Below are positions 35,011-37,053 of a DNA stretch of 64,000 nt, piece by piece. Location of the stretch: positions 64,593 to 128,592 of the forward strand of contig CAZWEM010000006.1 in the NCBI GenBank assembly GCA_964632315.1, written 5' to 3'. Within the stretch, counting starts at the first letter, position 1. Each line of letters starts with the position of its first letter. Made by a program: the position numbers and the translations under genes. The stretch is from an uncultured archaeon (GTDB lineage: Archaea; Asgardarchaeota; Lokiarchaeia; Sigyniarchaeales; SOKP01). The notes beneath the pieces were generated by a model, which saw only the letters and a list, made by a program, of their open reading frames with translations, had not been told where the DNA came from and did not search any database.

Positions 35011-37053
35011 TTAGATATCTAATACATTAACTTCATCAAAATTATTGATGATGAACTTTTTACGTGCCTTTACTTCCTTGCCCATTAATTTTGTAAAAAT
35101 TAAATCATTTTCAATATAATCTTCATAAGTTACCTTTTTGAGTATCCGAGTGGTGATATTCATCGTAGTCTCATATAACTCCTCAGGGTTCATTTCTCCA
35201 AGACCTTTATAGCGCTGAACCTTGATTGAATCAGAATTTTTTAGATTATATTTATCCATAAGATCGTTTATCATATCCTCCTTTTCCTTCTCAGAATGGA
35301 CATATTCTTTTGTTTTTTTATATGATACTTTATACAAGGGAGGAACTGCGATGTACAAATGGCCTTTATCAATTAAGGGACGCATATATCTAAAGAAAAA
35401 TGTAAGGAGGAGAGTCTCTATATGAAATCCATCAATATCAGCGTCGCACATTATAACAACCTTATGATACCTTAATTTACTCAAATCAAAAGTTGATTCG
35501 GTTTCTTCTTCATCATCTTCTTCGTTATCTCCATTTCCATTTTCTTCATTACTTTCTTGAAATCCGACTCCCAAAGCTTTTATTATGGACTGAATTTCTT
35601 TATTTCTTAAAATTTTATCTAATCTTGACTTCTCAACGTTTAAAATTTTTCCCCTTAATGGTAGAATCGCCTGATACGTTCTATCTCTTCCCTGCTTCGC
35701 AGAACCACCCGCGGAATTACCTTCTACGATGTATATTTCTGCTTTACTGGGATCGTTTGTGGAACAATCAGCCAGTTTTCCGGGCATTCTTGCGCTATCT
35801 AATGCAGATTTTCTTCGGATTAACTGTCTTGCTTTCTGAGCTGCTTCTCGAGCCAATTTAGCATTTATAGACTTTAAAATTACTTTTTTGGCAGTATCAG
35901 GATTTTCTTCTAAATATTGCGTCAGCTTTTCAGTAATTATTTGGCTGACAATTTGCCTTAACTCTGGGTTTCCTAATTTTATTTTAGTTTGGCTCTCAAA
36001 TTGAGGATCTGGGAGTTTTACCGAAAGAACTGCTGCCAAACCTTCTCTAGCATCTGTTCCACTTAAAGTATGCTCCTTATATTTCTTTTCCATAAAATTT
36101 TCAATATAGGAATTTAAGGTACGAGTCAAACTTGTTTTAAAAGCAGTAAGATGTGTTCCACCTTCAACCGTGTTAATCGTATTAGCATACGTAAGGATAT
36201 TTGTTTGATACCCTTGATTATATTGCATTGCAACATCAACATAATAAGTAGATTCCTCATCATCATAATTATCACTGATGAAGATAATGTCATCATGTAA
36301 AGGTTGTTTATCCTTATTCAAAAAAGAGATAAATTCTTTTATACCTCCCTCATAATAAAATTCTTGTTTAATATCTTCGAATTTGTTATTGAGTTCAAAT
36401 CGCGCTTGAGGTGTTAAAAATGCAAGCTCTCTAATTCTATTTATTATAATAGCGGGATTAAATATTCGCTTTAGATCATCTACTTCAAAAATCTCGAGGT
36501 CTGGGAAAAAGGTAATACGCGTGAAGCTTTTCTTTTCACCACATTCGGTTATCTCTGGATCAGATGATTTTACTCCCCTTGAAAACCGCTGTCTATAAAG
36601 TAAACCATCTTTACAAATTTCCACTTCCAGCCACTCCGCAAGAGCATTGACAACAGATAGTCCAACACCATGAAGGCCCCCTGAAATTTTATAGCTTTTT
36701 TTATCAAACTTACCACCAGAATGTAGGTGTTCCATTATCACTTCTAAAGCTGGTTTCTTATATTCAGGGTGAGTATCAATAGGAATTCCCCTACCATTAT
36801 CAAAAACTTGTACTGAATTATTTTCAAATAGGGTTATTTTAATTTCATTGGCAAATCCACCCATTGCTTCATCAACAGCGTTATCTACCACTTCAAAAAT
36901 GAGATGATGGAGCCCTTTCTTGCCTACATCACCAATATACATCGCAGGCCTCTTTCTTTAGCGACCGAACATGAATTATGTAAATCAGTAAACGCCTTCG
37001 AGGCCTTTAAGTACTTGGATATCCTCTGCATCATATGACTCGTTATTAGCCAT
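35011..37053 (-). CDS. gyrB: DNA gyrase subunit B, two exons: 37053-36991 and 36957-35011 (669 aa if spliced)
   Basis: Exon 1 [21 protein letters not shown] joins exon 2 RKRPAMYIG...EVVDNAVDE...GGLHGVG...EGNSAGG...PLRGK...DADIDG...RYKGLGEM. Confidence 0.95.
36958..36990 (-). other. Putative 33-nt bulge-helix-loop (tRNA-type) intron in gyrB mRNA
   Basis: UACUGAUUUACAUAAUUCAUGUUCGGUCGCUAA contains three in-frame stops; its ends coincide with canonical cuts in a bulge / 4-bp helix / loop structure. Confidence 0.8.

Follow-up and report, generated by a model that had tools for sequence, protein, structure and literature searches.

In eukaryotes, splicing outside the spliceosome is exemplified by the Ire1-dependent processing of HAC1 and XBP1 messenger RNAs (mRNAs), whose exons are joined by transfer RNA (tRNA) ligase, RtcB in animals. 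This type of splicing is named in PMC13149111. In archaea, the closest described cases are the bulge-helix-bulge (BHB) introns in the crenarchaeal pre-mRNA of the pseudouridine synthase gene cbf5, which are cut between the second and third residues of the bulge (Yokobori 2009, PMC2738675). A BHB intron has also been described in the 5' untranslated region (UTR) of the HVO_1309 mRNA of Haloferax volcanii; before that study of 2020 cbf5 was the only mRNA case reported (PMC7714728). The current work concerns a 33-nucleotide (nt) insert in gyrB, the gene for DNA gyrase subunit B, of an uncultured Asgard (Promethearchaeota) archaeon. The gene lies in a 64,000-nt stretch of contig CAZWEM010000006.1, hereafter the window. 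We regard it as highly probable that this insert is a real and very probably spliced BHB intron of the relaxed kind in the gyrB mRNA.

The metagenome-assembled genome (MAG) that contains the window measures 4.45 Mb and is 99% complete, with 8.6% estimated contamination. The gyrase genes are arranged as follows:

36991..37053, minus strand: gyrB exon 1, 21 codons, with the ATG at 37053 and the last codon GTT at 36993-36991; the GyrB N-terminal arm
36958..36990, minus strand: intron, 33 nt, UACUGAUUUACAUAAUUCAUGUUCGGUCGCUAA, with three in-frame stop codons
35011..36957, minus strand: gyrB exon 2, RKRPA followed by a 643-amino-acid open reading frame (ORF) and the stop codon
32539..34980, minus strand: gyrA, intact and directly downstream of gyrB; NCBIfam gyrA, 1044 bits, full length

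The 643-amino-acid ORF (35011-36942) belongs to NCBIfam gyrB/PRK05644 (855 bits), and the profile match begins only at position 21/30. Exon 2 itself opens slightly earlier, with AGA AAG AGG CCT GCG ATG (RKRPAMYIG...), and the 33 nt before it read TAC TGA TTT ACA TAA TTC ATG TTC GGT CGC TAA in codons (36990-36958, minus strand), with in-frame stops at 36987-85 (TGA), 36978-76 (TAA) and 36960-58 (TAA). Joining the two exons yields a GyrB of 21 + 648 = 669 amino acids. The N-terminus of an intronless congener (L004) aligned to solved E. coli GyrB structures from approximately residue 4, and this alignment includes both the arm tyrosine and the motif GL(D/E)(A/G)V|RKRP(G/A)MYIG. Exon 1 aligns with the N-termini of intronless congeners. 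The insert therefore sits in one of the most conserved motifs of GyrB and severs the N-terminal arm from the rest of the protein. The original prediction, made from the letters of the window alone, had described an ORF that begins at MYIG, an arm with its tyrosine encoded upstream from the ATG at 37053, an interruption of exactly 33 nt with TGA, TAA and TAA in frame, and an otherwise intact gyrBA pair; the coordinates, the profile matches and the structural alignment bear out each of these points.

Part of a 2-kb stretch of this locus is carried by 20 public sequencing runs, 3 of which are RNA libraries, and four runs were compared with the stretch. In the metatranscriptome run X20, a contig of 220 nt (depth 14.9, 4 mismatches, about 98% identity) spans 36779-36957, omits exactly 36958-36990 and resumes at 36991-37031. 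There is zero positional ambiguity at this junction: a shift of one base would give GTA, and GTT is observed. In the DNA run X1, a contig of 647 nt covers 36449-37095 without a gap and carries the insert. The variant 36937 A>G is common to the X1 DNA contig and the RNA contigs of X19 and X20; thus, the DNA that bears the insert and the RNA that is free of it share a strain-level variant. The 33 nt are retained in DNA and apparently removed in RNA, on the limited support of one contig from one RNA run.

The pre-mRNA around the insert was folded without constraints, as the minimum free energy (MFE) structure of 36936-37016 on the minus strand. It forms the following elements:

36946..37006, minus strand: exon-exon helix h, AGGCCUC (37006-37000) with GAGGCCU (36952-36946), closing the motif; in the MFE fold
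36993..36996, minus strand: 5' strand of the central helix H, GGCG in exon 1, paired with 36960-36963; in the MFE fold and also by RNAalifold
36960..36963, minus strand: 3' strand of the central helix H, CGCU in the intron
36990..36992, minus strand: 5' bulge of the canonical 3 nt, UU|U, with the 5' splice site between 36991 and 36990
36964..36989, minus strand: intron helix h' and hairpin, ACUGA (36989-36985) with UCGGU (36968-36964), enclosing ACAU-AAUUC-AUGU
36953..36959, minus strand: 3' side of the internal loop, A-rich AAAGAAA opposite GAA (3 x 7), with the 3' splice site between 36958 and 36957

The MFE is -23.4 kcal/mol, against a mean of -15.7 for dinucleotide shuffles (z = -2.6). Under the cbf5 cut rule, this structure would be cleaved at UU|U and AA|A; the excised intron then measures exactly 33 nt, and the resulting junction GGCGUU|AGAAAG reads Gly-Val-Arg-Lys (GV|RKRP). 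Among 200,000 shuffles of the 33 nt, 118 retain a central helix paired at 4/4 positions together with an h' of at least 4 base pairs (bp) in the register that restores the frame, and the shuffle tests overall give 4e-4 to 2e-3. The minimal HBh' form is present, namely a 4-bp central helix, a 3-nt bulge on its 5' strand and then the intron helix h'. The strict canonical hBHBh' form is not found here, the second 3-nt bulge being replaced by the 3 x 7 internal loop GAA/AAAGAAA. Since the 3' site lies in that loop, the element belongs to the relaxed bulge-helix-loop (HBh') class, a form described in PMC5829648.

The same interruption was found in related organisms. Within the family, gyrB 5' ends were compared in 110 genomes: 22 are interrupted at the same GV|R codon boundary, and 88 are uninterrupted (...GL(E/D)GV-R(K/R)RPAMYIG). 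The introns measure 30 nt (5 cases), 31 nt (1), 33 nt (3) or 53 nt (13). In the genus of the window there are 6 (33, 33, 33, 31, 53 and 53 nt); a second genus carries a 30-nt intron in 5 of 9 genomes, and a third holds 11, of 53 nt. Beyond this family, the rest of the order, class and phylum yielded no gyrB intron, as judged by the length of the open frame, with two cases inspected directly. In 22/22 introns, at all four lengths, the cut rule restores GV|R(K/R/L)RP, and the geometry is shared throughout: GG(C/U)G of the exon, two bases, the cut and h' on one side; h', the 4 nt pairing with GG(C/U)G, two bases and the cut on the other. The lengths of 31 and 53 nt are not multiples of three, which makes an unspliced reading impossible and requires precise removal. 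The central helix pairs at 4/4 positions in 19 of the 22 introns, and h' at 4/5 or more in 18. One homologue, L154 (identical to L149), has the fully canonical hBHBh' form with two 3-nt bulges, and its 3' site lies in the bulge AGC.

Some other gyrB genes met in these searches are irregular in different ways. Between query residues 127 and 140, the gene at G030:C17:392532-394580 shows a gap of about 70 codons in what is still a single open frame; the match at G209:C95:9590-10675 contains 2 TGA and 1 TAA; and the gene on G042:C35 forms an open frame of 1129 amino acids on a very long branch of the tree. A pattern match on a Chloroflexota contig (L143) had no gyrB context and was rejected as a chance hit.

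The paired bases of the motif covary. In an alignment of 8 sequences from three length classes, 91% of the cells are paired, against 19-41% in controls with slid partners, and 4 pairs show compensatory changes; one pair of h' varies through UA, GC, AU, CG and GU. Compensatory changes were found in h', in h and in the inner hairpin, and in helix h they take the form of a CG/GC change at one pair across loci. RNAalifold, applied to the thirteen 53-nt introns, independently recovered H, the 3-nt bulge, h' and an inner GCGC hairpin, and within this class one pair of h' is CG in 7 sequences and UA in 5. Helix H varies by GC/GU only, because its 5' strand is coding. The proposal of a spliced protein-coding intron in an Asgard archaeon is supported by the RNA contig, by the homologues and by covariation. 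The original prediction had derived the folding elements, the junction GGCGUU|AGAAAG and the length of 669 amino acids: the unconstrained fold returned every element that it listed, and the X20 contig shows precisely that junction. Three of its proposed checks, run on assembled contigs and genomes, also came out in its favour, with the insert present without a gap in the DNA contig X1, the spliced junction found in RNA, and an alignment of gyrB 5' ends giving an intron in 22/110 with covarying helices.

Exon 1 provides evidence at the protein level. Of its 15 core codons, compared over eight genes that carry the intron, 11 vary only synonymously, 3 show conservative replacements and 1 does not vary. 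In the intron-bearing lineages, exon 1 is under purifying selection at the protein level. It is translated and selected even though it is separated from the body of the gene, and joining is therefore required.

Several observations weigh against splicing, or against this form of it. The spliced form is a single assembled contig from one small run, in a sample without a DNA library, and the RNA contigs of X18 and X19, which end at 36898 and 36942, stop before the junction and have no bearing either way. The 3' site lies in the 3 x 7 loop, and its cleavage thus needs an enzyme of relaxed specificity. The pairs of helix h are partly dictated by the Gly/Pro and Leu/Arg codons. In three homologues the central helix pairs at 3/4 positions (L010 and L032 have a G.A there, L197 a different mismatch), and in four h' is weak. 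Moreover, an intronless allele of the same species, expressed or present as carried-over DNA, is formally a conceivable source of the X20 contig.

That last point forms part of an alternative in which the 33 nt are a disabling insertion, GyrB is made in truncated form from Met 36942 or the gene is decaying, and the X20 contig derives from a strain of the same species that lacks the intron. An ATG (that of MYIG) does follow the insert, a single contig makes up the RNA evidence, and very close relatives differ in whether they carry the intron (L019 and L014, with 93-99% identity outside a short patch). A dying gene, however, would not be expected in the company of an exon 1 that all intron-bearing lineages keep intact and under purifying selection, of an intact remainder of gyrB and an intact gyrA, and of 22 lineages that retain a foldable, covarying motif with frame-restoring cuts. 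The X1 DNA contig, which has the 36937G variant of the RNA contigs, carries the insert, and an intronless gyrB of near identity was not found in the searched genomes or metagenomes, the closest in the genome searches being about 81% identical. In the metagenome scan for near relatives, generic gyrB matches through one conserved pattern dominate, the best with 57% identity over the first 200 residues, and neither an intron-bearing nor an intronless near relative was detected. We consider the disabling insertion very improbable.

For removal of the insert, the relevant enzymes are encoded in the same genome. Two genes with an EndA domain (PF01974; 207 amino acids on contig C28 and 205 on C8; 103 and 70 bits) and an RtcB gene (568 bits, contig C26) are present. 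The EndA on contig C28 is closest to the catalytic alpha subunits of heterotetramers (3p1z_B, 3ajv_B, 2cv8 and 2zyz_B, from Aeropyrum, Sulfolobus and Pyrobaculum) and aligns without gaps through the crenarchaeal lineage-specific loop; the second paralogue is more divergent. Asgard EndA is described as an (alpha-beta)2 enzyme with an L1 loop that confers broad specificity (PMC5829648), and two EndA paralogues in most Asgard genomes, together with many interrupted tRNA genes, have been reported (bioRxiv 10.64898/2026.10.13.758758; PMC5829648). By homology, the host encodes a predicted broad-specificity EndA and RtcB. Although the genome is 99% complete, ARAGORN detected no more than 30 tRNA genes, 19 of them with a called intron, some of these implausibly long. 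The 19/30 calls are consistent with heavy use of the EndA pathway, and many tRNA genes were probably missed owing to multiple or non-canonical introns.

With these components, the proposed course of events in the spliced-intron reading would be as follows. In the transcript, the Gly-Leu codons of exon 1 would pair with the Arg-Pro codons of exon 2 as helix h, GGCG of exon 1 and CGCU of the intron would form the 4-bp helix H, and the intron would fold into h' and its hairpin. The predicted EndA would cut at UU|U and AA|A, and RtcB would presumably ligate the exons to GGCGUU|AGAAAG. The mature mRNA would then be translated into the 669-amino-acid GyrB with its N-terminal arm, and the intron would be released, probably as a circle.

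Removal by an agent other than EndA and RtcB, whether another nuclease and ligase or self-cleavage, is about as improbable as the disabling insertion. The role of EndA is predicted from its genes, and the 3' site here lies outside a canonical bulge, which leaves some room for another agent. Against it, the junction falls at the position of the EndA rule in 22/22 introns of four lengths, and the conserved features are exactly H, the 3-nt bulge and h'. Introns of 30-53 nt are too small for known self-splicing introns, and across the whole window no Rfam family, group I and II introns and ribozymes included, rises above threshold. On the basis of that search and of a length of only 33 nt, group I and II introns and ribozymes were rejected; an intein was rejected as well.

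Under translational bypassing or recoding, the insert would stay in the mRNA and ribosomes would hop over it or read through it, as in phage T4 gene 60. That gene, too, encodes a topoisomerase subunit. In favour of such a reading, the insert here is a multiple of three and comes after a sequence able to form a hairpin. An RNA contig without the 33 nt exists, however; the three in-frame stops are of two kinds; the codons that would serve for take-off and landing do not match (GUU before the insert, UAA before AGA); and the 31- and 53-nt homologues would require differing hops that change the frame. Bypass or readthrough on an unspliced mRNA can be given hardly any weight.

The MAG contains a second gyrB fragment (L002, G000:C113:921-2703), which is GC-rich, lies at a contig end, has an uninterrupted N-terminus and shows only 57% identity to the GyrB of the window. 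It is most likely a contaminant contig of bacterial appearance. An assembly or binning artefact, with the insert or the contig foreign to the organism, would draw on this fragment and on the estimated contamination of the MAG, but is scarcely credible because the insert is present in the contig of an independent DNA run and has homologues in 21 other assemblies from different projects, while the AT-rich contig of the window matches Promethearchaeota congeners and the C113 fragment is separate from it.

A quick gyrB tree places the genes that carry the intron at scattered positions. The intron-bearing gene of G009 (L019) is 93-99% identical to the intronless L014 both upstream and downstream of a patch of about 150 nt that consists of exon 1 and the intron; within the patch, identity to L014 falls to 45-50%, and identity to L010 and the window is 91-92%. 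In the pair G022/G019 (L008/L016), the 5' 500 nt are 92-96% identical and the gene bodies 70-78%. Judging from these mosaic sequences, homologous recombination appears to carry the intron from one congener to another along with a short patch of exon; chimeric assembly of the mosaic gyrB 5' ends is a lesser alternative. The present data show no sign of a regulatory role for the gyrB intron. Most simply, it is a tolerated and occasionally recombined insertion.

The region upstream of gyrB contains a conserved AT-rich block in most genomes of the genus (window 37060-37200, minus strand; e.g. ATTATATGTAAATTG ... TTTACCTTTACA), about 40-130 nt before the gyrB ATG, which probably contains promoter elements. 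A dihydropteroate synthase gene (TIGR01496, 207 bits) lies further upstream, at window 37507-38367 on the minus strand.

A whole set of EndA-dependent mini-introns may exist genome-wide in the protein-coding mRNAs of this Lokiarchaeial family, with the gyrB intron as one visible member. We hold this idea tentatively, at slightly less than an even chance. Such mini-introns might spread among congeners as patches of exon plus intron through homologous recombination. If the idea is true, mRNA splicing by endonuclease and ligase would be routine in the gene expression of close prokaryotic relatives of eukaryotes. A genome scan for the strict hBHBh' form (4+4+4 bp, introns of 15-110 nt, 4.45 Mb) returned 13,920 matches against 10,695 in shuffled sequence, and an ORF-rescue filter left 30 candidates of 25-36 nt, where decoy cut positions left 20-25; the scan is not discriminating. 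In the same genome, the TBP gene (G000:C18:18785-19336) has a 30-nt insert between its two repeats, with an in-frame TAA and a hairpin of 8-9 bp with a 5-nt loop. Under the canonical cut rule, the helix CAUA/UAUG of this insert removes 28 nt, not the 30 needed for IQNI-FASGD.

For more than 20 years cbf5 was the sole archaeal coding frame known with a tRNA-type intron (PMC7714728). The case of gyrB adds an essential and highly conserved Asgard gene with such an intron and with RNA evidence for the predicted junction, and it comes as a series of 22 members that allows the conservation of the motif, its repeated presence and absence and its apparent movement by recombination to be followed. We infer that mRNA is among the substrates of the relaxed-specificity EndA/RtcB system in Asgard archaea. 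This is relevant to how a protein-independent tolerance of introns, and the splicing of mRNA, could have been available before the spliceosome. There is also a practical side. Gene callers truncate genes of this kind: gyrB is called from MYIG, and the arm for ATPase dimerisation is lost. Wherever mini-introns occur, Asgard proteomes and the estimates of completeness and pseudogenes are biased.

Among known systems, the crenarchaeal cbf5 introns are the nearest, and the original prediction was right to name them as the precedent (PMC2738675, PMC7714728). Both groups are short introns inside a coding frame, mostly of an unconventional or relaxed BHB form, cut between the second and third residues of the bulge; both are patchy among relatives, with gain and loss; and both go with a heterotetrameric, broad-specificity EndA, predicted in the case of gyrB. 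The cbf5 intron literature reportedly also includes Watanabe 2002 and Yoshinari 2006. The two differ in gene and phylum. Membership of the gyrB intron in the cbf5 lineage was rejected, the host gene being gyrB and the host one of the Promethearchaeota; the mechanism class is the same and the introns are not homologous. Moreover, the evidence for gyrB is an environmental RNA contig and comparison, whereas that for cbf5 is the sequencing of complementary DNA and cleavage in vitro, and the gyrB intron shows a trace of recombinational movement with a short patch of exon.

The HVO_1309 intron resembles that of gyrB in being an mRNA substrate of the archaeal splicing endonuclease, but it lies in a UTR, leaves the reading frame uninterrupted and belongs to a euryarchaeon with an enzyme of the alpha'2 type; the gyrB intron breaks an essential, conserved motif. 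The relaxed tRNA introns of TACK and Asgard archaea (HBh', hBH and BHL forms; PMC5829648; bioRxiv 10.64898/2026.10.13.758758) share the motif, the size range and the predicted enzyme; the gyrB substrate, by contrast, is an mRNA without a tRNA body to aid recognition. The splicing of HAC1 and XBP1 likewise removes a short mRNA intron independently of the spliceosome, with an endonuclease acting in stem-loops, joining by tRNA ligase and a change of the reading frame; its nuclease is the kinase-RNase Ire1, the splicing is stress-regulated, and it is not homologous to the gyrB case. A literature search revealed neither a paper on an intron in gyrB nor one on BHB introns of Asgard protein-coding genes. 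Thus, the gyrB intron is of the same mechanism class as the cbf5 introns, in a different gene and a different phylum, and is apparently new in print.

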